A DNA stretch of 24,985 nucleotides from a virus (Duplodnaviria; Caudoviricetes): positions 1-24,985 of IMG/VR virus record IMGVR_UViG_3300005764_000082; one strand, 5' to 3'. Shown here one piece after another: positions 4,471-24,985 of the stretch. Under the pieces are notes generated by a model, which was not told where the DNA came from, did not search any database, and saw only the letters and a program-made list of their open reading frames with translations. The translations under genes were made by a program, and so were the position numbers. Every line of letters begins with the position of its first letter. Position 1 is the stretch's first letter.

Positions 4471-4680
4471 ATGTTTGCGCTATCTGCATTCTCAATGCAG
4501 ATGGTAATGGACAGATCGCTGCAGAAAGACGACCTGTTCGGCAGCTTTGATCCGTATCTCTACGACTTCATCATCGTCGACGAAGAAAACAGGAAGTTTT
4601 TGCTGAAGATTTTCGAGTACACGACGCCAGTGAGATGGCGTCTCTATGACGACACTGCCTTTACTCTTAGAGCTGCATGA
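4471..4680 (+). CDS. hypothetical protein
   Basis: 69-aa ORF whose stop overlaps the terL start (ATGA). Confidence 0.55.
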   Translation: MFALSAFSMQMVMDRSLQKDDLFGSFDPYLYDFIIVDEENRKFLLKIFEYTTPVRWRLYDDTAFTLRAA

Positions 4681-6845: not shown

Positions 6846-8669
6846 ATGGCAGCAGAAACCCCGCCGATTCACGAGCAGATCATACCGCCATCTGAGCAGC
6901 CTGACGAGTACGATCAGACAAAAGGCGAAGAGCTAGCAGACTGGGTATTTGAACTTCTCGGCCATGCTGCGTCGATGCGCAAGAAGATCACCCGCGAAGA
7001 CAAGTGGGACTCTGACTTTGCTTTTTTGAAAGGCTCACAATGGACAGGACCTTTGCCTTCTTATCGTCGCCCTATCAAGATGAACGCATGGGCGCGAGCG
7101 TTGCACATCGCACTTTCTATCGTTATCGGCAACCGCCCGATTCTAAAACTGATACCGCAGGGAACCAACGTCGACTCGAACGTGATGAAGGCATGGCAGG
7201 ATGCTTTCTGGTCGATCCAGAAGACAGAATACGTGATCGACAAGTACGCAGAAGCACTGACGTGGGCGTGGATCGGCGATGGCGGGTTTTTCAAGGTCGG
7301 CTACGGTAGGCGACACGAGTATTCTAAGTCTCTCGCTGACGTGATGATCTCGTCGCCGCACCCGAAGAAGATTTATCCAGATCCAGACTGCACTGACTTT
7401 CGCCTCATCGACTGCAGCTACATCATCTTTCGCGATGTTCTAGACATGGCTACGATGTCGGCTCGGTATCCTGAGCAAGCACATCTCGTAGAGCCCGACG
7501 GTTCTGTTTCGCGCAAGTGGTCTACTGAATCACCAGAGTGGGCTAAGAGCGAGGGAGACGTTATTTCTCCTGCGGGAGGGTGGCGTGCGACAGGTGACTA
7601 CAGTCGTGCCAAAGCGACAGTCGCTGAGTGCTGGATTGACGACTCGTCGCTCGAAACGAAAGAAGAAACGCAAATTACGAACATTAAACAGATGATCGAC
7701 ACGTGGTCAGAGCTGACCGGAATGATGAACGGTTCTCTGTCGCCGGAAGATCGATCAGATTTGCAGGGCAACATCGAGGGATTGAGCGAACAGTCTCCGA
7801 TCGAGAAAGTGAATCAGCTGCGTGAGCGCATGATGGGCCTCACGTCGCGAGACATAACGCCGGAGCTGCGCCGTAAGAAGGTATGGGCGCCGAGATACCC
7901 GTACGGGCGTATCATCACCTGCACTCGCAACGTAGTGCTGCGAGACATTCCGAACGAAGCGTTTGGTCGTGCGTTCGGCTACGAGATGCGCTGGCCGTTC
8001 GTGTACATTCCTGGCGCTCTGTATCCGAACACGCTCTGGCGGCCAGGTCTGCTCGCCGACAACGAAGAGATTCAGCGCTCGATCAATAAAGCGCTCTCGC
8101 TGCTGATCGAAAACTCGATCAAGGTCACGAACGCTCTGGTGATATGCGACGAGAACGCGATGGAAGACGAGGACTGGGACAATCTTTCTCTGGTGCCCGG
8201 CTGCAAGATTCGCAAGCGCCCGATGTCTGAGTTCAAGGTCGAGTTTCCTAAGCCGCTGCCTCCACAAGCGTTTCAGCTGCCAGACTACTTGATTCGTAAG
8301 CTAGAAGAGCAGGTCGGTTTGCACGACCCGCCGATAGCGCCCGGCCAATCGGTAGCGAGCAAGACTGTCGCTTTCATGCAGCAAAAGGGTTCTTTTTTGA
8401 TGGGTATGTTGGCAAAGCTGGCAGAAGAGTCACTAGAGCGACTAGGCGCACGGATGATCGGCCTGATGGTGGATCGCTATCTGCCGGGTCGTATGGTGCC
8501 GATGTTCGACGGAGAGAAGATTTCAGGTGTTCAGCAGCTGCCAGAACTGCCACCATCGCTCAGGTTCAGGGTCGAAGCGACTAGCGGCTTTCAAGAAGTG
8601 CTCGGCTTCATGGAGATGATGTCTCAGCAAGGCAAGCCGCAGAGCCGGAGACAGCAAAGAAATGGATAG
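6846..8669 (+). CDS. portal protein (P22/podovirus-like)
   Basis: 607 aa just after terL. W..D..F..G.QW, RP, GDGGFFKVGY, IYPDP, YPYGRII, WPFV and Q..IN motifs are typical of this portal class. Confidence 0.9.
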   Translation: MAAETPPIHEQIIPPSEQPDEYDQTKGEELADWVFELLGHAASMRKKITREDKWDSDFAFLKGSQWTGPLPSYRRPIKMNAWARALHIALSIVIGNRPILKLIPQGTNVDSNVMKAWQDAFWSIQKTEYVIDKYAEALTWAWIGDGGFFKVGYGRRHEYSKSLADVMISSPHPKKIYPDPDCTDFRLIDCSYIIFRDVLDMATMSARYPEQAHLVEPDGSVSRKWSTESPEWAKSEGDVISPAGGWRATGDYSRAKATVAECWIDDSSLETKEETQITNIKQMIDTWSELTGMMNGSLSPEDRSDLQGNIEGLSEQSPIEKVNQLRERMMGLTSRDITPELRRKKVWAPRYPYGRIITCTRNVVLRDIPNEAFGRAFGYEMRWPFVYIPGALYPNTLWRPGLLADNEEIQRSINKALSLLIENSIKVTNALVICDENAMEDEDWDNLSLVPGCKIRKRPMSEFKVEFPKPLPPQAFQLPDYLIRKLEEQVGLHDPPIAPGQSVASKTVAFMQQKGSFLMGMLAKLAEESLERLGARMIGLMVDRYLPGRMVPMFDGEKISGVQQLPELPPSLRFRVEATSGFQEVLGFMEMMSQQGKPQSRRQQRNG

Positions 8670-8953: not shown

Positions 8954-9760
8954 ATGCCAGCTTCATTTCCTTTCGTGATAGACGAGTCAGTTCCGGACGG
9001 TAATACTGAATCAGCTCGCTTGCTCGATGATCGTATCCGCGAAGTCAAAGCGTGGTACAACGCGATGTTCGGCATCCCGCAGGTAGCGATGCAGGCAGCG
9101 ATCGGATCTACAAATGCTGACGGTACGTTCACCTTGTCGAAGGGCTTAGTGCTGTTCAACGTCGCTGCTGACCCGACGTTTGCAGGACAGCTGCAGCGAA
9201 ACGGAGCACGGCTAAAATACAACGATGGCTCGACTGCGCAGAATTTGGCGTTTCAATCAGACATTTTCTTGACCGGAGATAATTCTGAACCGAACGTAAA
9301 CAGCATCGCTACAGAGACAGCGATGTATACTATCGGTATCCCCGGTGGTTCTCTCGGCACAGCTGGTTTTCTTCATATCTACGTTGAGCATTTTATTCTC
9401 AGTATTCTAAGCGGTTCATCATTGCAGCTGCGCTTTGCTTTGGGCGGTGGTGTGTTTTATGGCCCGTCAATCTTCAACTCGACCGTCGGCACGGTGACGA
9501 ATGTCGGCGTCAACACTCATATCCGTCTCAACGCGAGAAGCAGCGTGTCTCTGCAGAACTTTGCCGCGACGACCATCATCGGTCAAGACAACGTGCTGTT
9601 TAATTTTGGCAATAGTGGCCAGCTTACTTATCATCGCGCAGGACAGACCAACATCAACATGAGCGGTGCTGTCAATTTTCAATCTAATGCTCTGTGGAGT
9701 CTATCTTCAGCTTCTAACTCTGTTTCGGGTATGGGCGTCGACATCGTGAAGACTAGATAA
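8954..9760 (+). CDS. short tail fibre/tail appendage protein
   Basis: N-terminal DE..P......LDDRIREVK resembles phage fibre-anchor motifs; Gly/Ser/Thr/Asn-rich beta C-terminal domain; precedes the nozzle-like gene. Confidence 0.6.
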   Translation: MPASFPFVIDESVPDGNTESARLLDDRIREVKAWYNAMFGIPQVAMQAAIGSTNADGTFTLSKGLVLFNVAADPTFAGQLQRNGARLKYNDGSTAQNLAFQSDIFLTGDNSEPNVNSIATETAMYTIGIPGGSLGTAGFLHIYVEHFILSILSGSSLQLRFALGGGVFYGPSIFNSTVGTVTNVGVNTHIRLNARSSVSLQNFAATTIIGQDNVLFNFGNSGQLTYHRAGQTNINMSGAVNFQSNALWSLSSASNSVSGMGVDIVKTR

Positions 9761-9761
9761 A

Positions 9762-11297
9762 ATGCCAGCCGGTACACCGATCACAGTTCCTGCTATCGTC
9801 GGAACTTTTATCAACAACCCGCCATTCAATCAGATCGGTTTTACAGACCAGTCACTGAACGTGCTGATACGAGAAGATGAGCTGCAGACTCGTCCGGGCT
9901 TGAATCAGGTCGGTCAGAATCTCAACGAGATAGTGCTCGGCTTCGCGCCGCCATGTCGCGACACTAGCGATCAGACAGTTTTGATAGCTGCTACGAATCT
10001 TCACTGGTGGAAACTCAACATGGCGACGGACTTGTACACGAACATCGCAAATGTTGCGCTTACTCAAGCGTTGATGCCGACGACGTTCACGTACTTTTTT
10101 CAGGGTGCTCATCAGTACATGATCGGCGTCAACGATAAAGACCCGACCAAAGAGTTTGACATTACGCAGAATACGGTGTTCGCGACCATCGCTGCAGCGC
10201 CGATCGGTCGCACATGCGCTACAGTAGCTAACAGAGTCGTCATCGGTAACTTGCTGTATAGCGGCACTCGCTTTCCTAACGACGTTCAGTGGTCAAGTGT
10301 CGCTGATCGCACGAGCTGGCCCGCGATAGCACGCAATACTTTGCCGGACACTGCGGACAACATCATGGCGATTCGCACTCTCGGCAGAAACTCTGCAGCG
10401 ATTCTCATGGAGCGCAGCCAGTGGATCATGCAGGCGCAGCTCGGCTCTGATGCAGCAGCATTTTCGTTTACTGTTATGGATCACTCGCCCGGTCCGATCG
10501 GGCCTGCTGCGTGCGACATCGGTCCTGGCGGTATGCAGGTCGTCTATCTCGGCGAAGACGGTAACATCTGGAGTTTCAACGGCGTGCAGTCGCAGATGAT
10601 CTATCAGACGCAGCGCTATATCGCTGGGCGCGTCAACTTCGTGACGAAATATCTCACTGCGGTTGCTTATCAGCACGCGCAGCAAGAAATCTGGATTTCA
10701 ATCGCTCTCGATGGCGATTTTTACCCGACGCATCTGCTGATCTACTCGTACAAGAACAGTCAAGTCTACATTCAGCAGACACCATCGACGATTCCTGTCA
10801 CAGCGATGGGCCTCTGTATCTGCGAGCTGTCGACGCCGACAAACCAGCTGCCGGACGTTCCTACGAATCAGCTGCCCGACATCCCGACGAACTTCTTAGG
10901 CGTCAGCAGTAAGATCGAAGAACTGATAATGGGCAACACGGTCGGCACGTATCACTGGGAAGGCACCCTAGATGCCGGTTCAAATATCTTTAACGACTGG
11001 CGATTGCTGATGCCTGTTATACCTGGATCAAACTACGTGTTTGACGGTCTTGAGATCATGGCAGAACCGATGGACGCGCAGTCTGGCGCTTTCACCGTAT
11101 CTGTTCAGCTTGGTCCTGCATACGATAATCTTACAGAGACGATTCTCGGCGTGCTCGATCCTTCTGACAGCGCGATGCTCTCGATCACTAACGTAGAGCT
11201 GAACGGGCGCGTCGTCGTCGTGCGTATCACAGGCAACGGTTACTTGAAAATCAGACGACTAGAAGTGCGGGCTTGGGAGGCGAGAGTGATGATCTGA
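9762..11297 (+). CDS. tail nozzle/stabilisation protein (P22 gp10/T7 gp12-like beta-propeller)
   Basis: 511 aa beta-rich; N..I....LQTRPG near the N-terminus, NRVVIGN, VQWSS..D.TSW, VYLGEDGNIWSFNG and LLIYSY blades. Confidence 0.8.
   Translation: MPAGTPITVPAIVGTFINNPPFNQIGFTDQSLNVLIREDELQTRPGLNQVGQNLNEIVLGFAPPCRDTSDQTVLIAATNLHWWKLNMATDLYTNIANVALTQALMPTTFTYFFQGAHQYMIGVNDKDPTKEFDITQNTVFATIAAAPIGRTCATVANRVVIGNLLYSGTRFPNDVQWSSVADRTSWPAIARNTLPDTADNIMAIRTLGRNSAAILMERSQWIMQAQLGSDAAAFSFTVMDHSPGPIGPAACDIGPGGMQVVYLGEDGNIWSFNGVQSQMIYQTQRYIAGRVNFVTKYLTAVAYQHAQQEIWISIALDGDFYPTHLLIYSYKNSQVYIQQTPSTIPVTAMGLCICELSTPTNQLPDVPTNQLPDIPTNFLGVSSKIEELIMGNTVGTYHWEGTLDAGSNIFNDWRLLMPVIPGSNYVFDGLEIMAEPMDAQSGAFTVSVQLGPAYDNLTETILGVLDPSDSAMLSITNVELNGRVVVVRITGNGYLKIRRLEVRAWEARVMI
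10836..10898 (+). repeat. 24-nt tandem coding repeat, about 2.6 copies (PTNQLPDV-PTNQLPDI-PTNFL)
   Basis: ccgacaaaccagctgccggacgtt / cctacgaatcagctgcccgacatc / ccgacgaacttctta. Confidence 0.85.
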
Positions 11298-11656
11298 TGG
11301 TCTGGTTTGTCCCGCCGATAAGAACTCAAGCAGTAGATGATCCAGACTTAGACTGGGCTTACGATCAGCTAGCACGCGCTATGATCGGCAACCCGGTGAT
11401 AAATCAGACCGGCGCTGCGACTATGACCGGCGCTCCGACGACTGGCAGTGTGACTCTGCCTGTAGCAGAGCAAGACGCTAATTACTCGGTGATTCTATCG
11501 CCGTCAGGGTTTACCGGCACTCCGGCAGCTGGCAGTCAGACTATCACGTCGATCACGCCGACGACGACTGGCTTCACCTTCACGACTCAAGCAGCGCCGG
11601 GACTCGGCAATACGGTAAGTTTTAGCTGGTTCTTAGTTCGCACGTTGACACGATGA
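11297..11656 (+). CDS. small tail protein with an H-type-lectin/gp53-like beta domain
   Basis: TGATG overlap gives start 11297; SVTLPVA..D.NY.V.LSP...TTTGFT...VSFSWFLV pattern. Confidence 0.65.
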   Translation: MVWFVPPIRTQAVDDPDLDWAYDQLARAMIGNPVINQTGAATMTGAPTTGSVTLPVAEQDANYSVILSPSGFTGTPAAGSQTITSITPTTTGFTFTTQAAPGLGNTVSFSWFLVRTLTR

Positions 11657-13385: not shown

Positions 13386-14372
13386 ATGGCAGCTGGAACT
13401 GGGGTCGATAGCACGATGGCAGTGCTCGCGAGCACGCTGAACTCTTTCGTGCAGAAAAACATAGCTCCGCTCGTGTTCGACAACGTGCTCAAGCATAATC
13501 CTGTGCTGTATCGATTCTGGCGCAAGGGGCCGGTCTTGGACGGGGGCGCAGCTCTCACCTGGCCTGCTTTGACGCAGACTAAGAGAAACGGTGGGTGGTA
13601 TATCGGCGCAGCGAACTTGCCGCACGGCGTCGAAGACACGATCCAGCCTGCTGAAGTCTTGTGGCGTCACGTCGCTGAAGACATCACGATTCCGCGCACA
13701 GACATGCTGAAAGCTCGCACACCGTACGCTAAGGTCGATCTCGTCAAGACGAAGTTCGACGAAGCGATCTTGAACCTTCGCGCTCGCATCTCTGCAGCTC
13801 TGTATGCGACTGCGACTGAGGGCAACTCGCTAGATCATCTGTTTCAAGCTGTCGACGAGGGCACAGATTTCTCGACTTATGCTGGAATCGCTCACAGCAA
13901 CACTTTCTGGAAATGTGGGATCGCTGGTGACGGTCGATACGCTAAGGCGTCGACGCCTGTCACTACGCTGACGGAACTAGAAATCAACGTCTACGGCAAA
14001 GCCTGCGATGGCGACGAGCAACCAACTTTGGGGATTACTACACAGCCGGGATGGGATTTCATCTGGGGTCAGATGCAGGCTCTTCAGCGCTTCGTTAGGG
14101 ACGACGAGATGACGAAGGCTGGGTTCGAGGCGCTGAAGTTTAACCGCGCAGTGCTCGTGGTAGATCGTAACACTGTCGCTAACACGCTGCTTTTCATCAA
14201 CGAGAACTGGATCGATCTCGTCAGTCACGAAGAAGAGAACTTCGCGGTCGACCCGATACTGCCCGGCACCCCGTCAGAAAGAAGCATCAATACAAAAACC
14301 GTTTGGTCGGGGAATCTCCGCACCAAGATAGTCCGCTATCACGCGAAGATGGTTGGCGCCTCGAACTTTTAA
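13386..14372 (+). CDS. major capsid protein (HK97 fold)
   Basis: 328 aa after the scaffold with AAGGAG SD; FDNV...NP.L, GG..L..P, A...W....ITI...D.L, VDL...K...A...L, P....TT and AGF..L.F pattern of phage MCPs. Confidence 0.88.
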   Translation: MAAGTGVDSTMAVLASTLNSFVQKNIAPLVFDNVLKHNPVLYRFWRKGPVLDGGAALTWPALTQTKRNGGWYIGAANLPHGVEDTIQPAEVLWRHVAEDITIPRTDMLKARTPYAKVDLVKTKFDEAILNLRARISAALYATATEGNSLDHLFQAVDEGTDFSTYAGIAHSNTFWKCGIAGDGRYAKASTPVTTLTELEINVYGKACDGDEQPTLGITTQPGWDFIWGQMQALQRFVRDDEMTKAGFEALKFNRAVLVVDRNTVANTLLFINENWIDLVSHEEENFAVDPILPGTPSERSINTKTVWSGNLRTKIVRYHAKMVGASNF

Positions 14373-14383
14373 GGGATAGAGCG

Positions 14384-14755
14384 ATGAAACAAAAAATAAC
14401 AGTATCTTTGATCGCTTTAGTCGCTTTTGTCGCTCTGTACTCGGCTTATCTCTACTCTCAGCCGATTGTCCCGTACGGCCCTAACGTGCTGGCAGCGCTT
14501 TACCAACAGAAGCTGACGCCAGCAGCGTCGTCAGCAGCAATTCAGACTGCAGAGCAGACGTTTACGGTGAACGGTCTGATCACTCGCGACATCGTTTTCG
14601 TGAACGGACCAGCTCCGACATCGTTGTGCCCTATGGTGTCTGCTCGCGTGTCAGCGGCGAACACGCTAGCGATTGCGTTCTCTACCCTGACAGCAGCGGG
14701 CTGCACTCCGGCAACCGGGGTCTACAATATCTACGCTTTCAGATATGGTGGCTAG
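14384..14755 (+). CDS. capsid decoration/cement-like protein with an N-terminal signal peptide or anchor
   Basis: ATG14384 follows the MCP stop. MKQK plus hydrophobic core plus LYS|Q, then TAEQTFTVNGL...ARVSAANTLAIAF...TP..GVY, a beta domain typical of post-MCP genes. Confidence 0.7.
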   Translation: MKQKITVSLIALVAFVALYSAYLYSQPIVPYGPNVLAALYQQKLTPAASSAAIQTAEQTFTVNGLITRDIVFVNGPAPTSLCPMVSARVSAANTLAIAFSTLTAAGCTPATGVYNIYAFRYGG

Positions 14756-14756
14756 T

Positions 14757-15059
14757 ATGGCGACGAAATCAGAGCCGAAAGAAGAGCCAAAATCAGAGCC
14801 GAAAGCTGAGCAGCACGCAGAGCAGCATAAGCCGGCATCTAGAAAAGACATAAAAGCACCGTCAGCGCTGGGCTTTATCGAAGCGCTCAAGGCAGCGAAA
14901 GAAGGCAAGAGAATAGCTCCGACAAAAGATGGCGTAGCTGTCGGCCCGCATCTGTTCTACGACAAGAGTGATTTTAGATGGCACTACACTGATGGCGTCG
15001 GCTTAGTGATGCTGCCGTCACCAGACGAGCTGATGGGTGACTGGGAAGCAGTAGACTAG
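14757..15059 (+). CDS. DUF2829/Tad2-like protein with an N-terminal EPK repeat (alternative start 14745)
   Basis: F.EALKA.KEGKRI ... LPS.DELMGDWEAV matches the F.EAL..LK.G..V ... PSQ.D.LAEDW..V outline of the family. Confidence 0.55.
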   Translation: MATKSEPKEEPKSEPKAEQHAEQHKPASRKDIKAPSALGFIEALKAAKEGKRIAPTKDGVAVGPHLFYDKSDFRWHYTDGVGLVMLPSPDELMGDWEAVD

Positions 15060-15081
15060 AGCAAAATAAAGGAGACTTCAC

Positions 15082-15480
15082 ATGGCATTTGCGATGGCAG
15101 TTAAATCAGAGTTGCCTCCAACGGGCCCTATTGCTTATCAGCATCATCAGACTGCAGCTGATGCGACAGCGACAACGACGGTCACGACCGGAGCGTTTGG
15201 CGATCTGGTGACACCCGGACGCTGGTGGATTCAAGCGAAGATTCTGATCAAGGCGCTGAGCGGCACTTGCTCTCTGACTCTTGAGACTGCAGATAACACT
15301 AGCTTTTCGACGAACCGCCAACAGATAGCACCTTTTGCTGCAACGACTGCATCGATTCTTGGCAGCACTATTTTATCAGGATGGACTGACATAGCGACGA
15401 ATCAGTATTACCGGATACTGATGGCTTTCGGCACGTCTGGCACCGTAGACATCGTTGTCGATGCGAACCCGGTGCTCTGA
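15082..15480 (+). CDS. beta-rich structural (decoration-like) protein
   Basis: AAGGAG SD at 15069-15074; Thr/Ala-rich; LTLETADN..F and QYYRI jelly-roll-like pattern. Confidence 0.65.
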   Translation: MAFAMAVKSELPPTGPIAYQHHQTAADATATTTVTTGAFGDLVTPGRWWIQAKILIKALSGTCSLTLETADNTSFSTNRQQIAPFAATTASILGSTILSGWTDIATNQYYRILMAFGTSGTVDIVVDANPVL

Positions 15481-15495
15481 GAATACGGCGCATGA

Positions 15496-16455
15496 ATGAG
15501 TCTTACGTTTGTCGATCTGTATACTGCGGTTCAGGACTTAACTCCGACGCAGATTTCAGTCGCACAGGCTAAGAGTGCTGTCAATCGTGCTTATTTTTCC
15601 ATTGTTCGTCTTCGTCCTTGGCTCGGCGTCAACTTTACTGATGCTTTCGTAAGCCAGCCAGACAAAACAGATGGCACTATTGCACTTACCCAGGGCTCTT
15701 CAACCATTGTCGGAACCAACACCACATTCGCGGCTAGCGATGTGGGGCGTTATCTGCGGGTCGGCGCTCGCGTTCTCGTTCGTGTTACTGGGTATACTGA
15801 CCCTACTCACCTGACGCTTCAGATTCCGTGGGGTGAGTCGACAATTCTCACCACCGGCTACGCACTAGTCACTCTTCGCTACACACTCCCAACGACTGTC
15901 GAGCGAATCATCAGGCTCTCAGGGCCGCAGTGGTTTCTAGTACGGCGCAACTTAACGCTGATTGACGCCTACGACCCATTACGTGTCATGCGCAACGTGC
16001 CGCTGATATTCACTGAGGTCGAGATAGTGAACGGCGTGAAGGAGTACGAGCTATGGCCGATCCCGAACCAGTACGACACGTACACTCGTCAGTGCCGACT
16101 AGTAATAACGCCGCTGGTGAAGGATTCCGATGTGCCGCTGATCTCCCCAGAGGCCATCATGTGGCGAGCGTCGAAGGAGATGTCGAAGAAGCTCTACAGC
16201 CGGACAGGCGATCAATCGTGGAACGCTACCGCCGTCGGCTACGACGAGGACTATAAAGACACGCTAGACGCGATGATCAGAGAAGACCGTAGGCAGCGCG
16301 GCAGCCACCCGATCGTGTTTGACGCTGAAGACGCTAGCCCGATCTATGATCCAGGCTTCTTAGCGTTTCAGCGTGCATGGGTAGCGCTCGGCTTAGGCGC
16401 AATCGCTGGCGCACCTACTGGCGGGTACGGCGGTGGTGGTTACGGTGGCGGGTAA
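15496..16455 (+). CDS. head-tail adaptor/tail tubular protein A (T7 gp11/P22 gp4-like) with a beta-domain insertion
   Basis: MSLTF.DL...V, VNRAY, RYTLP...RI, YELWPIPN and SD.PLI motifs; inserted TDGTIALTQGSSTIVGTNTTF segment. Confidence 0.75.
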   Translation: MSLTFVDLYTAVQDLTPTQISVAQAKSAVNRAYFSIVRLRPWLGVNFTDAFVSQPDKTDGTIALTQGSSTIVGTNTTFAASDVGRYLRVGARVLVRVTGYTDPTHLTLQIPWGESTILTTGYALVTLRYTLPTTVERIIRLSGPQWFLVRRNLTLIDAYDPLRVMRNVPLIFTEVEIVNGVKEYELWPIPNQYDTYTRQCRLVITPLVKDSDVPLISPEAIMWRASKEMSKKLYSRTGDQSWNATAVGYDEDYKDTLDAMIREDRRQRGSHPIVFDAEDASPIYDPGFLAFQRAWVALGLGAIAGAPTGGYGGGGYGGG

Positions 16456-16471
16456 TGATTAGGGCGATGAT

Positions 16472-16759
16472 GTGGCTCGCAGCGATCTCATTCCTGAAGA
16501 TTTTAGCGATACTAGTGTAGCGCAGCTTAACGCTATGATAAGAGCACTCCAAGCATCTGCAGGACCACGCGGTGCTACTTTCGCTGGTCGTCTCGTCCAG
16601 CCGAGCGATACGCTCAGCTCTCTGATGCAGCGCTTTCCGCAAGCTGAGCTAGAAAGCGGCGGTGGAGCAATGCGTCAGTTAAATATACCGAGCATAACTG
16701 CTCTCTTACAACTTATCGGTATGCTCAACAAACAGAGAGGCGCGAGTGGAGCTTATTAG
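16472..16759 (+). CDS. hypothetical virion-module protein
   Basis: 95-aa ORF filling the gap and overlapping the next start. Confidence 0.6.
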   Translation: MARSDLIPEDFSDTSVAQLNAMIRALQASAGPRGATFAGRLVQPSDTLSSLMQRFPQAELESGGGAMRQLNIPSITALLQLIGMLNKQRGASGAY

Positions 16760-17261
16760 ACTATTCGCTGACGATACGCTTTCGCTAAGGCTCTGGCCAG
16801 ATGTGCGCGAGAGAATCATCGCTGCGACGCAGATGGAAAATCCGGGTGCTGACTCAAACGTAATCATCCAGACGATTCATAGCAAGTGGGTGACGGCTAG
16901 CAACACGATCGGCATCTGGGCTGCTGTAGAGAAAGGGCATGTTTTAGGTCATGCAGTCGCGTGGGTTGAGACAGTCTGGAACGTGCCGAGAATCTTTATC
17001 TTTCAGATCATCTCTGACCCGCAATCAGGCGCTCTGTTCGAGCTGAAAGACGAGTTTCTATCTAGACTGCGCGAGTGGATTGATTACCTGAACGGCATGT
17101 ATGCCAAGAGCAATAGCCCGTTTAGAATCGACTATGACGTGTATTTCACGACTATGCACGAGCAGGCGTTTCTCAGAATTTTTAAGGGCAGGGCGATAAA
17201 AGAATACTCAACTCTCAGGATCGACGTGAGCGCACAGCTAGTCTCTGCGGAGGTACACTGA
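16746..17261 (+). CDS. GNAT-fold protein (positional equivalent of T7 gp13/P22 gp14)
   Basis: LWPDVRERI helix and IWAAVEKGHVLGHAVAWVE...RIFIFQI strand order; immediately upstream of the first ejection protein. Confidence 0.55.
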   Translation: MELIRLFADDTLSLRLWPDVRERIIAATQMENPGADSNVIIQTIHSKWVTASNTIGIWAAVEKGHVLGHAVAWVETVWNVPRIFIFQIISDPQSGALFELKDEFLSRLREWIDYLNGMYAKSNSPFRIDYDVYFTTMHEQAFLRIFKGRAIKEYSTLRIDVSAQLVSAEVH

Positions 17262-17262
17262 C

Positions 17263-18303
17263 ATGTGCGGCGGCGGCGGCGGGCAAACACAACAGACTAA
17301 TCAGCAGAACTGGAACCCTGCGATCCAGCCGCTGATTCAACGCGGGGCTAGTCTCGCGCAAAGCTGGTTAAGTCCACAAAGCGAGGGTGGCGGTGGTGCT
17401 CCTGGTGCTGGACCAGCAGTCGATCTGTCTCAGTTCTTTGCGGCGAAACCGCAAGATATTCCTCAGCTTACACCTGAGCAGTATCAATTTATCGGCATGC
17501 AAGAACAGCTGCCTAATCAGCTTTATACCGGCGGTGAAGAGACAGCGCTGAGTCAACTTAATCAACTGACTGGTGGTCCTGTCGGCTCTGCGCCTTCTAC
17601 TGAAGAAGCGATGCAGTCGTGGACCCAGAACGTGCTACCGCAGATAAAGCAGATGCAAGCGCTGCAGGGTACGACTTACGGCGGCGCAGCTGACGAAGCT
17701 GTAGCTAACTCGATGAGCAGCGCTTTGACGCCGCTGTTGCAGCAGGAGATTTCTAACAGGGCAGCAGCAGCACCGGAGTATGCGCAGATCAGTGAAACAG
17801 CAGCGAATAGACAGATACAGAACATTCAGAACGCTCAGCAGGCAGCGAACATGCCGTATCAGCAGCAAGCGCAGCAAGCGCAGGCGAACTATCAAGATTA
17901 TCTGCGACGTTATCAGCTAGCTCAAGACATGACGCTTGGCCCGGTAATGCAGCTTTCTCCGAGTCTCGGCGGGTTGACGTCTACAGTGAAGACTAGTGGT
18001 GGTGGTGGTGGCGGGATGTTCGGTAGCGTGATCTGCACTGTGCTGCATGCTCGCGGTTATCTCGACGAAGAAATATACTCGCTAGATTCTCTACTTGGCT
18101 ATCACATGGGAGTTTATCGCCCACTGGTCATGCGCGGCTATCACAAGTTTGGCGTGCCTATAGCAAAGCTGATGCTGAAGTCTGCGATTTTCAGTGCAAT
18201 TATCGCTCCGTTTGGTGTACTGTGGGCGCGAAAACTAGCTGGCGGTAAGAAAAATCGTCAACTGTTTCTGGCAGCGCTAAGATTCTGTGAATCGATTGCA
18301 TGA
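17263..18303 (+). CDS. ejection/DNA-transfer (internal virion) protein with a C-terminal Cys-initiated domain
   Basis: MCGGGGGQTQQT N-terminus, Gln/Ala-rich helical body, Gly linker, then VICT..H..GY...GYH.FG.PIA domain. Confidence 0.7.
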   Translation: MCGGGGGQTQQTNQQNWNPAIQPLIQRGASLAQSWLSPQSEGGGGAPGAGPAVDLSQFFAAKPQDIPQLTPEQYQFIGMQEQLPNQLYTGGEETALSQLNQLTGGPVGSAPSTEEAMQSWTQNVLPQIKQMQALQGTTYGGAADEAVANSMSSALTPLLQQEISNRAAAAPEYAQISETAANRQIQNIQNAQQAANMPYQQQAQQAQANYQDYLRRYQLAQDMTLGPVMQLSPSLGGLTSTVKTSGGGGGGMFGSVICTVLHARGYLDEEIYSLDSLLGYHMGVYRPLVMRGYHKFGVPIAKLMLKSAIFSAIIAPFGVLWARKLAGGKKNRQLFLAALRFCESIA

Positions 18304-18794
18304 GTGATAACTCGCTGGAAAAAGTAAGGTTTCGCGAGAGCGTGCTGCAGGCTCAAGCTGAAATGTTTCAGATGATCGAGAACGGTCAGATGAAAGATGT
18401 CACGAGCGAGCTGACGCTGACTCACTATTTCACGCCGATCGACGAGAAATACGGCTGCTGCACGTATGCTCGTCAGTGTTTCTTGCCCAAACACAGCTGG
18501 ACGTTCGGCAAGATTCATCGCCACCAACATTTGAATTTCATCTTGAAGGGCAAGGTGATTGTCGTAACAGAGTTTGGCAGAAAGCACTTTGAAGCGCCAT
18601 GCACTTTCATTAGCGAGGTGGGGCTGAAGCGGGCAGTGTTCGCGGTCGAAGACACGCTCTGGACGACTGTGCATCTGACGCAGTTCAACAGCGAAGCTGA
18701 TCTCGACAAGATCGAAGAGGAAGTAATCGCGCCTAACTACGAGACGCTCGGCTTGATCGCGTCGATTGACAAGTTTCTGGAAAAGCACAAATGA
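18300..18794 (+). CDS. cupin-fold protein
   Basis: THYF...YARQ..LP....GKIHRHQHLNFILKGKV...APCTFIS..G.KR...A.EDTLWTTVH, a His-rich phage cupin usually found beside internal virion genes. Confidence 0.8.
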   Translation: MSDNSLEKVRFRESVLQAQAEMFQMIENGQMKDVTSELTLTHYFTPIDEKYGCCTYARQCFLPKHSWTFGKIHRHQHLNFILKGKVIVVTEFGRKHFEAPCTFISEVGLKRAVFAVEDTLWTTVHLTQFNSEADLDKIEEEVIAPNYETLGLIASIDKFLEKHK

Positions 18795-19390
18795 CTTGGG
18801 TAATCGTTGCAGGAGTTGCTATCGGCGCGTCTCTCGGCGGGATTAAGGGAGCGATTGGTCACGACAAAGGTGGCGAGTGGGGCAGAGATATAGGCTTAGG
18901 AGCTATACTCGGCGGAGTTAGTGGTGGAGTCGGCGGGCTAGGTGGAGCTATGCCAGCGCTCGGCGGCGGCATGACTGGCGGTGGAGGTTCAGCTATCGGC
19001 TTCGGCGCAGCACCTGAGATCGGAGGCGAGACAGTAGCTGGGCCGCTGATGGAAAATGCCGGATTCTTCTCAACGCCGCTCGGAGCAGCACAAAGCGGTA
19101 CGTTCGGTTTAGGCGATATAGGCGCGATGATTCAAAAACCGTTCTCAGGCATGTCGCTCACAGATGCGGCGAAACTAGCGCAGACGTTACCCGGCATGTT
19201 GGGTGGCGGGCAAAAGACTGCTCCTGCTGCGCCTCCTACGCAAGAGCCACAACCTAAGACCGGAGCATATCAGCCGCCAGATGTGTCAAGATTTCTGACG
19301 CCGATACCAAATTTCTCTACTGCTGGTGCTCAGAACGATCAGCTCGCAATGCTGATGAAACTGCTGCAGAGAAGCAGGAGCATAGGATGA
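18791..19390 (+). CDS. ejection protein with a glycine-zipper hydrophobic N-terminus (P22 gp7/T7 gp14-like)
   Basis: MTWVIVAGVAIGASLGG and GLGAILGGVSGGVGG GxxxG repeats. Confidence 0.7.
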   Translation: MTWVIVAGVAIGASLGGIKGAIGHDKGGEWGRDIGLGAILGGVSGGVGGLGGAMPALGGGMTGGGGSAIGFGAAPEIGGETVAGPLMENAGFFSTPLGAAQSGTFGLGDIGAMIQKPFSGMSLTDAAKLAQTLPGMLGGGQKTAPAAPPTQEPQPKTGAYQPPDVSRFLTPIPNFSTAGAQNDQLAMLMKLLQRSRSIG

Positions 19391-19728
19391 TCAAGCCAGA
19401 ACGCACGATGCAGTCGACGATTCACGAGAAGGTCGCGTGGCGCAACCTCAAGCAAGATGACGTGGGAGAAGCGCACACTACTGCAGATGTTTTTCCGCGC
19501 AAGCGCGTGATCGAAGTCTCCGGCAACTTCAGCGGCAAAGCGACTCTGCGATTCTGCGGCGGTATAGAGCGTAGTGACTACGAGCTGACAGACGACGAGG
19601 GCTTGCCAGCGCTATTGACTAGACCCGGGATGATGACGATTGACGACACTCTCTCTGCGATCTATCCGATGCTTGATGGCGGCAATCAAGACACTGATGT
19701 TACGGTCGTGATGCTGGTCATTATGTGA
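19387..19728 (+). CDS. beta-sandwich structural protein, paralogue of 20288..20668
   Basis: Shared W..L...D.G, G.F.G..T, SDY..D..G, P...GG and VTV.M pattern. Confidence 0.65.
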   Translation: MIKPERTMQSTIHEKVAWRNLKQDDVGEAHTTADVFPRKRVIEVSGNFSGKATLRFCGGIERSDYELTDDEGLPALLTRPGMMTIDDTLSAIYPMLDGGNQDTDVTVVMLVIM

Positions 19729-19734
19729 GGTTTT

Positions 19735-20307
19735 ATGGCTCAACGTAAATCAGAAGAACCGGAAGAAATCTCAGATGGCGAGATTCAGCAGTCTATGGCG
19801 CAGCTTCAGCGCCAGCACGCGATATTCGCCCACGCCAAGACGTTCGTCGATGGCTATCTTCAGGCGAAACGCGAGATGGCTAATCTAGAGCGCGAGAAAG
19901 CGAAGCTCGCTGAAGAGGTCAATAAGAGCCGCGCTGAAGCGCATGACATCGCTGCGAGCCACGACAAGTTCAAAGCAGCGATGAAAGCTGCAGAGACTAA
20001 AGCGATTGAAGAGAGCGACACTGCTGTGCGCTCGAAGATCGACGCTCTCAAAAAAGAGATCGCTGCTCTCGAAGCAAAGAAAGTGCAGCGCGAGAACGAT
20101 CTCGTCGATTACGAGAAGTCGATGAAGCAGCGCGTTAAAGACTTGCAGAACGAAGTCACTGATGCTGCTCGCGCTGCTGATGAGAAGATCGCAGCGCTCG
20201 ACAAGCAAGTCATGTCATATCAGCAGAAGCACGACGACATCATAGCGTCGCTCAACAAGTCGATCAGAGAGAAAGTGAGCGAGGTCAGTGGCGGTCATCC
20301 CGTATAG
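19735..20307 (+). CDS. long coiled-coil protein
   Basis: 190 aa of Ala/Glu/Lys heptads, essentially without Pro in the core. Confidence 0.8.
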   Translation: MAQRKSEEPEEISDGEIQQSMAQLQRQHAIFAHAKTFVDGYLQAKREMANLEREKAKLAEEVNKSRAEAHDIAASHDKFKAAMKAAETKAIEESDTAVRSKIDALKKEIAALEAKKVQRENDLVDYEKSMKQRVKDLQNEVTDAARAADEKIAALDKQVMSYQQKHDDIIASLNKSIREKVSEVSGGHPV

Positions 20308-20668
20308 CTGTGACTTTCTTGCAGCGAACGTGTTTTTGATCTCTTGGGCTGGCATGACTACGAACGACACTGGAGCACCATATCCGTTTTATCGTTACGT
20401 GTCGCACTTTACTGATAAGTCGGCTCAAGCGTGGGGCACGTTCGGTGGGAGCACGATTTTGCTAGAAGGGTCGAACAAAGTTGGGCCGCTGATCGACTCG
20501 GACTATGACCCGATCATGGACCCAGCAGGCATCAACATCACGTGGACTGCACAGGCGCCGCTCAAGCAGATTTTGCCGGTGTTCGTGCAGTTTCGACCGC
20601 GCATCACTGGTGGTGCAGGAAGCTCGATCAACGTGACCGTTATGATGGTCAACAAACGAACGCAGTAA
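20288..20668 (+). CDS. beta-sandwich structural protein, paralogue of 19387..19728
   Basis: SWAGMTTNDTG, DKSAQAWGTFGGSTILLEGSN, DPAG, FRPRITGG; GAGG upstream of the GTG start. Confidence 0.7.
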   Translation: MAVIPYSCDFLAANVFLISWAGMTTNDTGAPYPFYRYVSHFTDKSAQAWGTFGGSTILLEGSNKVGPLIDSDYDPIMDPAGINITWTAQAPLKQILPVFVQFRPRITGGAGSSINVTVMMVNKRTQ

Positions 20669-20677
20669 GGAGTTATT

Positions 20678-20866
20678 ATGCCGGAAAGATTCAATCCTAG
20701 CCCGCACACTAGCGAGCGTGTCTCGACAAAAAAGATCGACAACGCTGGAAACTTGATCTCGTCTGACTACAGTCACTGGCATCACATCAAGAAGTACGGT
20801 GATACCAAAGAAGCGCACGAAGGTCCGATAGAACACGAAGGCCCACTAAAAGATCGAAAGGAGTAG
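20678..20866 (+). CDS. small hydrophilic hypothetical protein
   Basis: TAAGGAG SD; contains HEGP twice. Confidence 0.7.
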   Translation: MPERFNPSPHTSERVSTKKIDNAGNLISSDYSHWHHIKKYGDTKEAHEGPIEHEGPLKDRKE

Positions 20867-20869
20867 ACT

Positions 20870-21064
20870 ATGAGCTGGAAAGAAAAAGAAAAGGGCGGCT
20901 TCGACATCCCTATGCCGAAGAGCTTTCCGAACCACGAGTCGACGATCACTCCGACATACTCGACCGGCAAGGGTCCGACTCAGGGCAGCACGAAGGCGTC
21001 AGACAGCCATACCGGCAAGCATGGCGCTCGCAGCGGCGGCGGCAAGAAGAACGGCTGGGAATAA
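20870..21064 (+). CDS. small basic, disordered hypothetical protein
   Basis: AAGGAG SD; Lys/Gly/Ser/Thr-rich. Confidence 0.7.
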   Translation: MSWKEKEKGGFDIPMPKSFPNHESTITPTYSTGKGPTQGSTKASDSHTGKHGARSGGGKKNGWE

Positions 21065-21067
21065 ACT

Positions 21068-22165
21068 GTGCCCGATCCAGCGTTGGTCGACCCCAACGCT
21101 AATCAGCCCTGGTTAAATCGTAACCTGCCAGAGCTGATGACGGTGCTCGGCTCTCTCTTAGCGCCGCTGCGTTTCGGTCACCGAGACATACAGGGTCAGC
21201 GTCACGGCTTGGCGCCGTTCGCACCGATCGGTGCGCTCGGCCCTCTGCTGATGAAGCAGCGCGAGCTAGACACGCAGCGCAACTTAGAGCTGCAGCAGCA
21301 GGCGCTCAAGGGCGCAGCGCTGCAGAAGATGACACAAGCGCTAGAGCCTAGCGAGGGCTTGGTTCCGGCTCAGATCGACGTTGAAGACCCGAATCAGCCA
21401 GCAGTGCCGCAGAAGACTGGGATGGTAGCGCCGAGCGAGCAAGAGTTTATGCGCCGCATGGGAACTATCTCGCCCGCAGAGATGGCGGCGTCTGGCGTCA
21501 CGCCGTTTCAGGTCTACGAGATGGCGCAGAAACTGCGCGTTCAGCCGAAGATCACAAAAACTAAGCCAGGTGAAACAGTTGAAGTTACTGACCAGTACGG
21601 CAACGTGATCAGCACGAGAACTACACCTAAAGAGCCAGCAGAGCCTAAATTACCTACGAATATCGCAGAGCAGCGCCAGATCGCTAATACACCAGGCCAT
21701 CCTATGCGAGCTGCAGCAAAAGCAGCAGTTGAAGAATCTGAGAAAGCTGCCAAAGATTTAGACGCTCAGAAAGCTAAAGAGCGCAAAGAATACGGCCAGA
21801 TGATTCAGGGGCTGATTACTGGGCGACAGCAAAAGAGGCTAGACGCATTAGATAAGAAAAAGAACGACATCAACAAGCAGATCAGCGGCTTGAACAACAC
21901 GAAAGCTAAGCTGCAGACTGAGCTAAAAGATTTGACAGACCCGAAAAAGATGCCGAGCACTTGGACTAAAGCTGGCGCTAAATTGTACGGCGAGAAACAA
22001 GCTCAGATCAAAGCTAAGCAGAGAGAAATCGACATAGTGACAGACAGAATAATGGGTCTGCAGGGCTTGCGCGGCGGGCTCGAAGCAGCAGGCGAAATGA
22101 GCAACGCTAGCGACGCAGAGGTGCTCGGCGCACTTATTAGCGTTCCACAGCCTGGAGGCGAGTGA
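21068..22165 (+). CDS. ejection/internal virion protein (P22 gp20/T7 gp15 position)
   Basis: 365 aa with an N-terminal amphipathic segment and Gln/Lys/Ala coiled coils; position in the ejection cluster. Confidence 0.65.
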   Translation: MPDPALVDPNANQPWLNRNLPELMTVLGSLLAPLRFGHRDIQGQRHGLAPFAPIGALGPLLMKQRELDTQRNLELQQQALKGAALQKMTQALEPSEGLVPAQIDVEDPNQPAVPQKTGMVAPSEQEFMRRMGTISPAEMAASGVTPFQVYEMAQKLRVQPKITKTKPGETVEVTDQYGNVISTRTTPKEPAEPKLPTNIAEQRQIANTPGHPMRAAAKAAVEESEKAAKDLDAQKAKERKEYGQMIQGLITGRQQKRLDALDKKKNDINKQISGLNNTKAKLQTELKDLTDPKKMPSTWTKAGAKLYGEKQAQIKAKQREIDIVTDRIMGLQGLRGGLEAAGEMSNASDAEVLGALISVPQPGGE

Positions 22166-22166
22166 G

Positions 22167-24032
22167 TTGGAGCTGACAGATCGTCAATGGGCTGCAGTGC
22201 TAGAAGCAGATAAGCGCGGTATCTTGCCGCCAGAAAAGCAAGCTGCTCTCGCAGAAGCACGTCGCCGCGGGTTAGTGCCTGGTTCTGAGAAGCCAGCTTC
22301 TGCTAAGAGAGAGATCACGCCGCAAGAAGCAGGGATACAGGGAGCTGTCGGTGATGTTGTCGCAGGAGTGCAGGCAATTCCTGGAGCAGCGTCAGCGCTC
22401 GCTCGTGGCGCACCGATTCCGGCTCTGTATTCGATCGGAAAACGTCTGATCACAGGCAAGAGCGAGCAGACGCCAGAGCAGAGCAAGAAAGATGTAAAAA
22501 ACCTGCTCGAAGCATCGAACTTGCTAAACACGCCATATATTCTCGGTGGTGGTTTGCTCGGCACAGGCTCACAGATTCTCGGCGCTAGCCCAGAGACTGC
22601 GAGCAAGATTCGTACTGGCACAGAAATCTTGGGACCGCTGGCGACTGGTGGCATCACGATGGCTGCCAAGCGACTAGCTCCTGAAGCGTGGGCTGCTGTC
22701 AGCAGCAGAGCATCAGCTGTGATGCCAGAAGCGCGAGATGTGCTGAACATAATCACTGGCAGATCGCGGCGCGTCTCAGAACGAGCGGCAGCGCGAATTT
22801 TTAGCAACGAAGAGAAAGCAGCTGCGAAGGCACTGCATGGCCAGTTCGGCGAGCAATACGCAGCAGTCAGAACAGCCGGGATGGACATTCCTGTCAAGAC
22901 TGACGAGATCGCAGATGCGCTGTCGTCTGTAGTGCCGAAAGATCAGGTAGAAAAAATTCTAGCAACTCCGACAGAAGCAAGACTCGCTAAAGCGTCGCGC
23001 ATAGCAGAGAATCTTGACGCAGCTGAAGAAGCTGCGCTAGAGCAGGGAACAGTGCCGCAAAGCGTATACTCTAAGCTGTTCAGAGACAGAGGGGCACCAT
23101 CGAGTGATTGGCGAGAACTCGGAATCGATCCCAAGACTGCAGAAAAAGACATCACAGAGCTGGTGAAATCTGGCAAAGCTAGAAACATTCAAGATGCGAT
23201 GCAGCAGCTAAAAGAAGCGCAGATCGCAAAATACGGTAACCCTCACGCTGGCAATCTTATTTCTCTGCGCCAAGACTTGAAAGACTTGCAGCGCAAGGCG
23301 AAGCCGTTCAGCCAAGGGTGGCGTCAGCTTCAAGATGCTCAAGAGAACGTATTGAACCTCATCAAGAGCAAGAGTGAAACGCTCGCTAGCAACTTGCAGA
23401 AAGTAGATCGCGAGTACGGGCGCAGAATGATCAAGAGCATGGGCGAGCTAGACAAAGTAGCAGCTGAAGATCCGAGCAGATTAGTAAAAGAATTGTCGTC
23501 GATTGAAGATCCTGTAACGCTTGCTGAAGCTCGCCGCTTTATGTCTGACAAAGCGAAGCTAGCTGTGCGCGACGTGTGGATGCGAGAGGGGCTAGCAAAG
23601 CCGGAAAATCTAGTCAAGCAGATGGATTACTGGTCAAAGAATAATCGCACAGCTCTTGACTTGTTTGCCGGTACTAAAGATCAACAACAGCTACTGAGAA
23701 ATCTAGCAGTCAACATAGAGAAAGAAGCTAAGAGCACTGCTGGCTTCGGGCGCGGCAGGTTCGGCTTCTTTCAGGGAGTGCTCGGCGCTAAAGACATCGT
23801 TATGGGCGCTCTGCTGCAGAACCCAGCTTATCTGGCTCTCGGCGCTATGCACGTAGCGACGTATCTCGGCTATCACGATCCTAAGATGCTGACGAAAGTC
23901 ATATCGACTGGAGGCGCTGGTATCGTGAACGCTTTCATCAGCAGACCGACGACTCAGACGTTGCGAGCGCTGACAGCAGCAATGAATAAAGCAGAAGAGA
24001 GCGAGGCACAAGAAAATGCCCGCAGTAAGTAA
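22167..24032 (+). CDS. large ejection/internal virion protein (P22 gp16/T7 gp16 position)
   Basis: 621 aa, Ala-rich and helical; LEADKRGILP...LAEARRRGL duplicated N-terminal motif; Gly-rich hydrophobic segments near both ends. Confidence 0.7.
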   Translation: MELTDRQWAAVLEADKRGILPPEKQAALAEARRRGLVPGSEKPASAKREITPQEAGIQGAVGDVVAGVQAIPGAASALARGAPIPALYSIGKRLITGKSEQTPEQSKKDVKNLLEASNLLNTPYILGGGLLGTGSQILGASPETASKIRTGTEILGPLATGGITMAAKRLAPEAWAAVSSRASAVMPEARDVLNIITGRSRRVSERAAARIFSNEEKAAAKALHGQFGEQYAAVRTAGMDIPVKTDEIADALSSVVPKDQVEKILATPTEARLAKASRIAENLDAAEEAALEQGTVPQSVYSKLFRDRGAPSSDWRELGIDPKTAEKDITELVKSGKARNIQDAMQQLKEAQIAKYGNPHAGNLISLRQDLKDLQRKAKPFSQGWRQLQDAQENVLNLIKSKSETLASNLQKVDREYGRRMIKSMGELDKVAAEDPSRLVKELSSIEDPVTLAEARRFMSDKAKLAVRDVWMREGLAKPENLVKQMDYWSKNNRTALDLFAGTKDQQQLLRNLAVNIEKEAKSTAGFGRGRFGFFQGVLGAKDIVMGALLQNPAYLALGAMHVATYLGYHDPKMLTKVISTGGAGIVNAFISRPTTQTLRALTAAMNKAEESEAQENARSK

Positions 24033-24186
24033 GGCGCAACGCCGTTATATGGCGATTTGCGAGCACTCTGATCGCGAAGACTGCCCTGATATGTCGAAAA
24101 AACAATATCGTGATTTTAGCCGCACTAAAGAGAAAAACTTGCCGCATCGTAAGTCAAAGCGCAGAAAACGGAGATTGTCACGATGA
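24016..24186 (+). CDS. small basic protein, DUF3008-like (MPAVSKAQRRYMA...MSKKQYRDFSRTKEKNLPHRK); not in ORF track
   Basis: 56 codons; MPAxSKAQ...MS....F..TK.K.LP motif; GAGG upstream; ATGA-coupled to the next gene. Confidence 0.75.
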   Translation: MPAVSKAQRRYMAICEHSDREDCPDMSKKQYRDFSRTKEKNLPHRKSKRRKRRLSR

Positions 24187-24620
24187 GATTCATACTCGCT
24201 TTTCTAGCCATCTTGATTCCGGCGATCCTGCTCGCGCAGCAGACTAACACTGTTGGCTTCATTCAGCACGCTGGCTGGACGTCGACTACAGCTGTCGGCG
24301 CGGCATCTACGGTTCTGCTCAAAGCGTCGTCAGGTGCGACTCAGAGAAACTATATTACAGACATCTCGATCTCTGCGACTAGCGTCAATGCTGGCACGTT
24401 AAAGATCATTCAGGGCACAAAGACGACAACAGACTGCGATACTAACGCTGCAGACTTGACGCCGCCGTATAACTTGACATCGAGCGCAGGAGCTACACCG
24501 CAAGTCAACTTTACGACTAGCATGCCGGTGATACCGATAGCTGGGCGTCAGCTGTGCGGAGTCTCAGCTGGAGCTAGCGCAACGTACAGTGTAACTCTGA
24601 GAGGCTATACTGGGCCATGA
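24183..24620 (+). CDS. beta-rich virion-type protein with a Sec signal peptide
   Basis: MRFILAFLAILIPAILLA|QQ, then a Thr/Ala/Ser-rich jelly-roll-like domain (YITDISIS...VTLRGY) with two Cys. Confidence 0.75.
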   Translation: MRFILAFLAILIPAILLAQQTNTVGFIQHAGWTSTTAVGAASTVLLKASSGATQRNYITDISISATSVNAGTLKIIQGTKTTTDCDTNAADLTPPYNLTSSAGATPQVNFTTSMPVIPIAGRQLCGVSAGASATYSVTLRGYTGP

Positions 24621-24621
24621 A

Positions 24622-24985
24622 ATGAAAAAACTGCTTCTCGTCACCCTTTTTTTATCTGCAGTTCTATACTCTGCTGCAGCTCTCGCTCAAATTCCGACCA
24701 CTCCTAACATTCACTTAAATCTTCCGCCTCCCGGCACTCCTAACTGGGACGTGCTGCTCAACCAGAATTTTACGATCTTAGATCAGCAATTTCCGCAGGG
24801 TGTTGCAGCGATCTACGGTGTCTACAATCAGGGCATCTTGCTGCCAGGGCGAAACTATATCAACTTCACAGGCCAAGGTGTCAGTTGCGGCGACAACTCG
24901 ATCAACAATCGTATCGACTGCACGATCACGGGTGGTGGTGGTGGTGGTGGCGGGCATGTCATCGCAGACGAAGGTACACCGCTCA
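24622..24985 (+). CDS. tail fibre-like protein with a Sec signal peptide (runs off the window); not in ORF track
   Basis: MKKLLLVTLFLSAVLYSAAALA|QIPTTPNIHLNLPPPGTPNWDVLLNQNFTILD (fibre-anchor motif), then RNYINFTGQGVSCGDNSINNRIDCTI, G8 and VIADEGTPL; open to the window end. Confidence 0.8.
   Translation, partial: MKKLLLVTLFLSAVLYSAAALAQIPTTPNIHLNLPPPGTPNWDVLLNQNFTILDQQFPQGVAAIYGVYNQGILLPGRNYINFTGQGVSCGDNSINNRIDCTITGGGGGGGGHVIADEGTPL

Follow-up and report, generated by a model that had tools for sequence, protein, structure and literature searches.

The window analysed here, the whole of the 24,985-base virus record IMGVR_UViG_3300005764_000082, comes from an uncultured phage, and its sequence is present in soil metagenome runs. 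Its content corresponds to the late region of a short-tailed phage, with every gene on the + strand. Judged from its genes, the phage is a P22/SU10-type podophage, having a P22-like portal, an SU10-type adaptor and an ejection-type block. Within this region we studied three genes, named hereafter by their start positions, which encode outer virion-type proteins that begin with predicted leaders for export through the host Sec pathway and carry one pair of cysteines (Cys) each:

14384..14755, + strand: 14384, a 123-residue protein directly after the coat gene; leader at about residues 1-25, then a beta-sandwich of about 90 residues with Cys82/Cys107
24183..24620, + strand: 24183, a 145-residue protein; leader at residues 1-18, a single jelly roll with Cys85/Cys125
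24622..24985, + strand: 24622, the N-terminal 121 codons of a fibre; leader at residues 1-22, an N-terminal motif and a Cys89/Cys100 hairpin; cut by the contig end

Leaders were called by a von Heijne-style heuristic that asks for a basic n-region, an uncharged h-region of eight residues, a small residue at -1 and a tolerated residue at -3. It flags 3 of the 41 open reading frames (ORFs) of the window, exactly 14384, 24183 and 24622, and 20 further genes of the window served as a control, none of whose 4,743 internal positions passes. A preliminary description of this DNA had reported N-terminal leaders on these three genes, and they are present there. Its predicted cleavage sites, a small residue followed by Gln, stand as well, except that the exact site in 14384 is atypical and uncertain. 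It did not mention that 24622 is cut by the contig end, nor that each leader-bearing protein, in the part within the window, contains exactly two Cys. Neither a lipobox nor a second hydrophobic segment was found in 14384 or 24183, the two complete proteins. Gln occupies +1 after the predicted cut in all three leaders, which fits the Q rule of Bacteroidetes and is not exclusive to it, high values occurring also in some non-Bacteroidetes according to the accessible part of PMC5837995. The host search gave no assignment for the window: the coat protein matched one of five genomes at 24% identity, and among the 401 genomes of the phylum of G001 the 14384 profile matched seven and the 24183 profile one (E 8.5e-4).

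The preliminary description had allowed that the true starts might lie downstream of the hydrophobic segments, which is not what the translation signals indicate. The start of 14384 has a Shine-Dalgarno (SD)-like site (-5.2 kcal/mol against the anti-SD), that of 24183 overlaps the preceding stop as ATGA with an SD of -6.6 kcal/mol, and that of 24622 lies 1 nucleotide past the stop of 24183. Beyond the hydrophobic segments, in-frame starts are limited to GTG codons at codon 35 of 14384 and codon 44 of 24622, both without an SD (-1.7 kcal/mol), and 24183 has none. Contigs from other runs match the DNA over the starts of 24183 and 24622 with 0 differences; they do not extend 24622. Scans for promoters and terminators remained at chance level, with 8 promoters near the leader genes against 7.3 expected, and there is no RNA dataset among the runs listed as containing the window sequence.

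The fibre gene 24622 carries the motif TPN..LNLP..W...LNQNF.ILD behind its leader. This motif has no match in curated families, Pfam or the PDB, T4_gp9_10_N appearing as an Atlas lead only, at 0.84, and sequence searches of the PDB with the families of all three proteins gave no match. A metagenome scan for the motif found 15 loci including the window. In 12 of the 14 others (about nine distinct proteins), the leader ends 1-5 residues before the TP..L.LP motif. The remaining two (L120 and L121, one protein of 454 residues with one Cys) are leaderless, open with the motif and stand directly after ejection-type genes, a position that agrees with the earlier proposal of an N-terminal fibre anchor. 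A leader form occupies the same slot after ejection-type genes in L125, and 24622 itself is placed after the ejection-type block, as in its relatives. Its Cys hairpin is the repeat unit of one longer homologue, Cys89/Cys100 being the first hairpin. At L126:9504-10150, a fibre with leader and motif comes after baseplate-type genes, in a gene set resembling that of contractile-tailed phages, so this combination is not limited to podophages. At a further locus, L123:215-11002, a single block before an adaptor-like gene contains four or more fibre-like genes that bear leaders and are rich in Cys (up to 1,045 residues and 25 Cys).

An exhaustive search with 24183 returned 13 rows, namely itself, nine true homologues and three repetitive proteins (P0124, P0126 and P0133) that were dropped. 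All nine homologues carry a leader, and Cys85 and Cys125 are invariant over the 9 aligned rows. The structural model (predicted local distance difference test, pLDDT, 81.5) forms a single jelly roll, whose fold matches are the STIV turret (Z 10.0), the KHP40 cement protein 7DOU (Z 9.4, root-mean-square deviation 2.9 over 107 aligned residues) and the HFTV1 turret (Z 8.9). Spore-appendage and nucleoplasmin jelly rolls, which are non-viral, lie within 1 Z of these viral matches. There are 141 viral models at E<=0.001, a few of them named virion proteins. The predicted fold of 24183 thus resembles jelly rolls of the capsid cement/turret type, and searches of Pfam, PHROG and PDB sequences gave no match to it. 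A leaderless homologue, gp36 of Microbacterium phage KingKamren (hhalign 95%, E 3e-8), follows minor tail genes and lacks the Cys loop. A trimer prediction for 24183 scored 0.02, informative neither way. No paralogy to 24183 was detectable for 15082 and 20288. A similar short G-T-x-C-x-x-G loop supplies one Cys in two unrelated exported families, the 24183 jelly roll and a tailspike head-binding domain (L002:10883 and L084:10957).

The search with 14384 found 502 relatives, of which 120 are listed. Among these listed matches, 119 are non-self: 51 combine a leader call with the Cys pair, 58 have neither, seven have the pair only and three the leader call only. By eye, five of the seven pair-only proteins have leaders and two look truncated, and the three leader-only cases are weak calls on an internal strand. 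We rejected a Fisher p value on this table as evidence, the rows being related. In a tree built without the Cys columns, leader and Cys pair each need three changes, with one independent pair on supported branches. Across 80 viral loci the domain occurs in 58 distinct forms. The Cys pair is present in 11 of them, nine with an N-terminal leader and two in which a leader-like segment comes only after about 85 residues, and among the 47 viral forms without the pair one has a leader. In the two exceptional forms (L010:9275-10237 and L034:5665-6648), about 85 hydrophilic residues precede the leader-like segment, and a comparable hydrophilic stretch opens the gene preceding L034:5665-6648. Of 48 loci examined, 38 showed a large ORF upstream, which is a coat protein in 22 (16 leaderless and 6 leader-bearing cases); 36 of 38 scanned loci lie in virion modules of head or tail.

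The model of 14384 (pLDDT 92.5) comprises a helix and a six-stranded sandwich. It gave 17 viral models at E<=0.001, and Foldseek against the PDB found nothing at E<=0.001. The predicted mature domain weakly resembles C-terminal tailspike-tip and H-lectin domains, and 14384 is likely an exported capsid-accessory or lectin-like protein. The preliminary description had expected structural-type mature domains in all three proteins, and the predicted folds and gene positions agree; its decoration-type domain in 14384 gives way to a sandwich, weakly lectin- or tailspike-tip-like, that belongs to no recognised decoration family. Outside phages, the domain of 14384, again with a leader and this Cys pair, stands at the end of secreted proteins at three Patescibacteria-labelled loci (L081:9365-10255, L082:9539-10255 and L083:553-2514). 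The genes there adjoin one for a leader-bearing protein that is rich in Cys and has a peptidoglycan-binding match. An exchange between phage appendages and surface proteins of the candidate phyla radiation (CPR) is possible. In Acidobacteriota (L107, L108 and L109; genomes G340, G053 and G163), the domain ends large proteins and has another Cys pair; their genes neighbour polysaccharide-type or housekeeping genes.

A fourth family shows the same association. Five P22-like phages (L002, L004, L011, L013, and L084 from an Acidobacteria-labelled assembly) that have the leader form of the 14384 domain also have a leader and new Cys on their tailspike. The N-terminal domain of this tailspike matches 7EEQ, a tailspike head-binding domain (E 2.5e-8), and the same domain has no leader in four named phages; in PBR31, DSL-LC05 and P26218 it is leaderless and without the added Cys. 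G406, G407 and G408 each contain one copy of this domain, and none was found in G409. G406 is an uncultured podophage, 100% complete by CheckV, in which all five fibre- or spike-like late genes recognised by eye have leaders; the only leaderless fibre-like piece is a 60-residue stub after the nozzle, and no leaderless fibre was recognised. Since no podophage can do without a part that binds the receptor, the virion of G406 most likely makes use of an exported protein, as far as its gene content, read by eye, tells.

The other features of the late region are leaderless by the heuristic:

4677..6452, + strand: terminase large subunit (phrog_2, E 3e-20), leaderless
6846..8669, + strand: P22-like portal (PF16510, E 2e-12), leaderless
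8954..9760, + strand: fibre-like protein, Cys-free and leaderless (viral clusters at 0.92; a C1q-like tip as a lead only)
9762..11297, + strand: nozzle-like virion structural protein, leaderless (phrog_3287, E 3e-24; nozzle label from size and position)
11297..11656, + strand: small leaderless, needle/tip-like protein matching the Gp53-like C-terminus of tail fibres (PF21882, E 0.0016, below cut-off; phrog_1396, E 1e-6)
12624, + strand: scaffold-like ORF, leaderless (label from gene order and composition)
13386..14372, + strand: major capsid protein, leaderless (phrog_9953, E 3e-33)
15082, + strand: small, beta-rich, leaderless protein
15496..16455, + strand: head-tail adaptor, leaderless (PF24175 SU10_adaptor, E 7e-6)
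17263..24032, + strand: block with the long, helical, Cys-poor ORFs 17263, 21068 and 22167, leaderless, taken as ejection proteins from composition and order, with no family match in Pfam or PHROG

Terminase, portal, nozzle-like protein, scaffold, coat, adaptor and ejection-like genes are thus leaderless by the heuristic, as had been said of capsid, portal, adaptor and nozzle. A split with the core on one side and all appendages on the other does not hold, since the fibre-like 8954, a possible cytoplasmic fibre or docking piece, the Gp53-like 11297 and also 15082 are leaderless. For the same reason we rejected the idea that every appendage of the phage is exported.

Several other ORFs were noted in the window. 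Upstream of the packaging genes, a TET-associated glycosyltransferase (PF20691, E 1e-42) and a methyltransferase-like ORF (2-802 and 1498-2304) point to possible DNA hypermodification. A 168-residue ORF at 3945-4451, between 3525 and the terminase, has no family match and is Hint-like by eye only. An excisionase-like helix-turn-helix ORF (11653-11871), followed by about 300 non-coding bases, lies within the morphogenesis region. A leaderless cupin-like ORF in the ejection-type block (18300-18794) matches PHROGs labelled short tail fibre or adhesin (E 6e-28), a label that may be wrong. Searches of viral contigs with the coat protein and 24622 found no close relative of the phage.

Among cultured phages, Cellulophaga phage phi18:3 (KC821620, Pachyviridae), which infects a marine Bacteroidota, resembles the window in its gp085-087. 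These proteins have basic-hydrophobic leaders ending before Gln and are annotated as structural from tandem mass spectrometry (MS/MS), and the sequence record makes no remark on leaders. Between bases 27,000 and 71,443, leaders are found in 3 of 12 MS/MS-annotated structural proteins and are absent from the other nine. The accessible part of PMC11946311 says, of phi18:4, that the proteomics of Holmfeldt 2013 were made on purified particles. Bradyrhizobium phage ppBdUSDA122-1 (OP596612) has leader calls on its tail fibre WAX24263 (18 Cys) and on the upstream WAX24264 (6 Cys), and shares with L125, a relative of 24622, a domain that lies outside the part of 24622 in the window. Unlike the window phage, it has a long-tail-type gene set in the 13 kb examined, and the literature yielded no virion proteomics for it. 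The known podophages of the P22/Pam1 type share the P22-like portal, the adaptor, the ejection-type block and the cement-type jelly roll of 24183 (7DOU, 7EEL). However, their tailspikes and cement proteins are leaderless and fold in the cytoplasm, in line with the homologues in PBR31, DSL-LC05, P26218 and KingKamren, which have neither leader nor added Cys. The coat proteins of filamentous phages use Sec, but these phages assemble at the membrane and are not tailed. Sec-exported and signal-anchor-release (SAR) endolysins and spanins illustrate phage use of host Sec in the accessible text of PMC6116005; they are lysis proteins rather than particle parts.

Leader-bearing relatives carry extra Cys and leaderless ones mostly do not in all four families, with about one event per family, and this makes export and disulfide folding of the three window proteins very probable. 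Given export, docking on the particle appears fairly probable, to judge from the fibre genes of G406 and the MS/MS proteins of phi18:3. Taken as a whole, we incline to the reading that three outer virion-type proteins are exported and then docked on finished particles at lysis. The leader-bearing proteins would pass through Sec, signal peptidase I would clip their leaders, and the Cys pairs would become disulfide-bonded in the periplasm. The cytoplasmic core, comprising coat, portal, adaptor, nozzle and the leaderless 8954 and 11297, would be assembled as usual. When the inner membrane fails at lysis and the compartments mix, the exported parts would dock on the finished particles. The exported set would consist of host-binding or capsid-accessory parts, added last where the mature particle still offers open sites. 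In vitro, tailspikes of P22 bind to heads that are already finished, and mature heads likewise bind parts that are added last, such as tailspikes and decoration proteins. Export followed by joining to the particle had already been suggested in the preliminary description; the conserved leaders and the Cys gained in four families uphold the export, and we infer the joining.

Several observations weigh against export followed by docking. The leader calls come from the heuristic and not from SignalP. The leader and Cys pair of 14384 changed together only about once, and its two-by-two table is therefore not independent evidence. The fold matches of 14384 are weak (Z 7.0 for 9QRM, the best, 6.2 for the HK620 tailspike and 5.8 for discoidin) and within the range of chance arrangements. 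The leader and Cys form of its domain occurs in three Patescibacteria genomes among housekeeping genes, with 64-73% identity against 60% in an Acidobacteria-linked phage, and the Acidobacteriota proteins that end in the domain likewise speak against a purely viral role. The phi18:3 proteins gp085-087 have no sequence similarity to those of the window (best blastp E 0.30 over 26 residues), with 0-3 Cys and no pair pattern, and MS/MS of particle preparations such as those of phi18:3 can include co-purifying envelope proteins. For the window proteins and their families, particle membership is read across from other phages. Finally, the window keeps the leaderless fibre-like 8954 and 11297 and the leaderless 15082, so an infectious particle could be built without the exported set.

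The main alternative is that the proteins are exported but either remain within or on the envelope of the host or leave the cell, acting as adhesins, receptor masks or decoys of virion origin that serve superinfection exclusion or surface remodelling; action from the envelope had also been raised in the preliminary description. We consider it rather unlikely, though a serious competitor. The leaderless fibre-like genes could then serve the virion, and the 14384 domain in Patescibacteria and Acidobacteriota would be in keeping with a surface role. There are also precedents: the accessible part of PMC10769870 describes phage-fibre-like trimers of Bdellovibrio, the MAT fibres, which have signal peptides, fold after export and act as surface adhesins, and Matrishin et al. 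(PMC10367356, accessible part) read leader-bearing genes of P. gingivalis phages as host-surface modifiers. The MAT fibres, whose likeness to the window proteins is one of description, differ in being chromosomal, in having an N-domain of their own of about 130 residues and in lying outside a virion operon. The window genes are instead on the same strand and tightly coupled in the late operon, at slots of leaderless orthologues, with no excess of promoters nearby. Moreover, virion-docking N-domains are kept behind the leader, the complete G406 has no recognised leaderless fibre, and 14384 and 24183 have neither membrane anchor nor lipobox, all of which argues against retention in the envelope.

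If the hydrophobic N-termini were instead uncleaved SAR-type anchors, the parts would be held in the inner membrane until lysis, or the particles would be tethered there. SAR endolysins of tailed phages follow such a logic (PMC6116005, in its accessible part), the cleavage site of 14384 is atypical, and in L010 and L034 the hydrophobic segment lies about 85 residues inside the ORF. However, the leader ends in a small residue followed by Gln in 34 of 51 Cys-pair homologues of 14384, compared with 11 of 61 others. For the fibre family, cleavage is predicted 1-5 residues ahead of the motif with which the leaderless form opens. Both findings render permanent anchoring improbable. Still less probable is a dual route, in which inefficient export or a start further downstream leaves most of the protein in the cytoplasm for normal assembly, and the leader is vestigial or serves a second pool. 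The in-frame GTG codons just before the folded domain of 14384 and inside the fibre motif of 24622 would suit it; their lack of an SD, the absence of any such codon from 24183, and the leaders and Cys pairs kept over dozens of divergent homologues do not. Chance hydrophobic starts or an assembly error are hardly credible and already largely refuted by the internal-position control, the agreement of independent contigs and the leaders shared by homologues.

The usual assumption is that tailed phages complete their particles in the cytoplasm, and a literature search that covered few subscription papers and no preprint supplements brought up no description of virion parts of a tailed phage being exported by Sec. 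The window adds a minimal case, with one domain and one Cys pair per gene, leaderless counterparts matched for all three families, and exported and cytoplasmic appendages mixed. On balance we slightly favour the view that tailed phages have a second, periplasmic assembly line, in which Sec carries fibres, spikes and capsid accessories out of the cytoplasm, the host folds them oxidatively, and they are kept away from the heads until lysis allows the two to join. With a similar, cautious preference we suggest that several unrelated appendage families independently gained a leader and stapling Cys, and that one phage can mix cytoplasmic and periplasmic parts. If this is true, morphogenesis would depend on the Sec, signal peptidase and disulfide machinery of the host, and lysis itself would time the final maturation. 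Phages would gain disulfide-stapled and possibly host-modified receptor-binding proteins, and signal-peptide genes of late operons, often filed as morons, would be receptor-binding proteins. It would also open a direct route for fibres between phages and bacterial surface adhesins.

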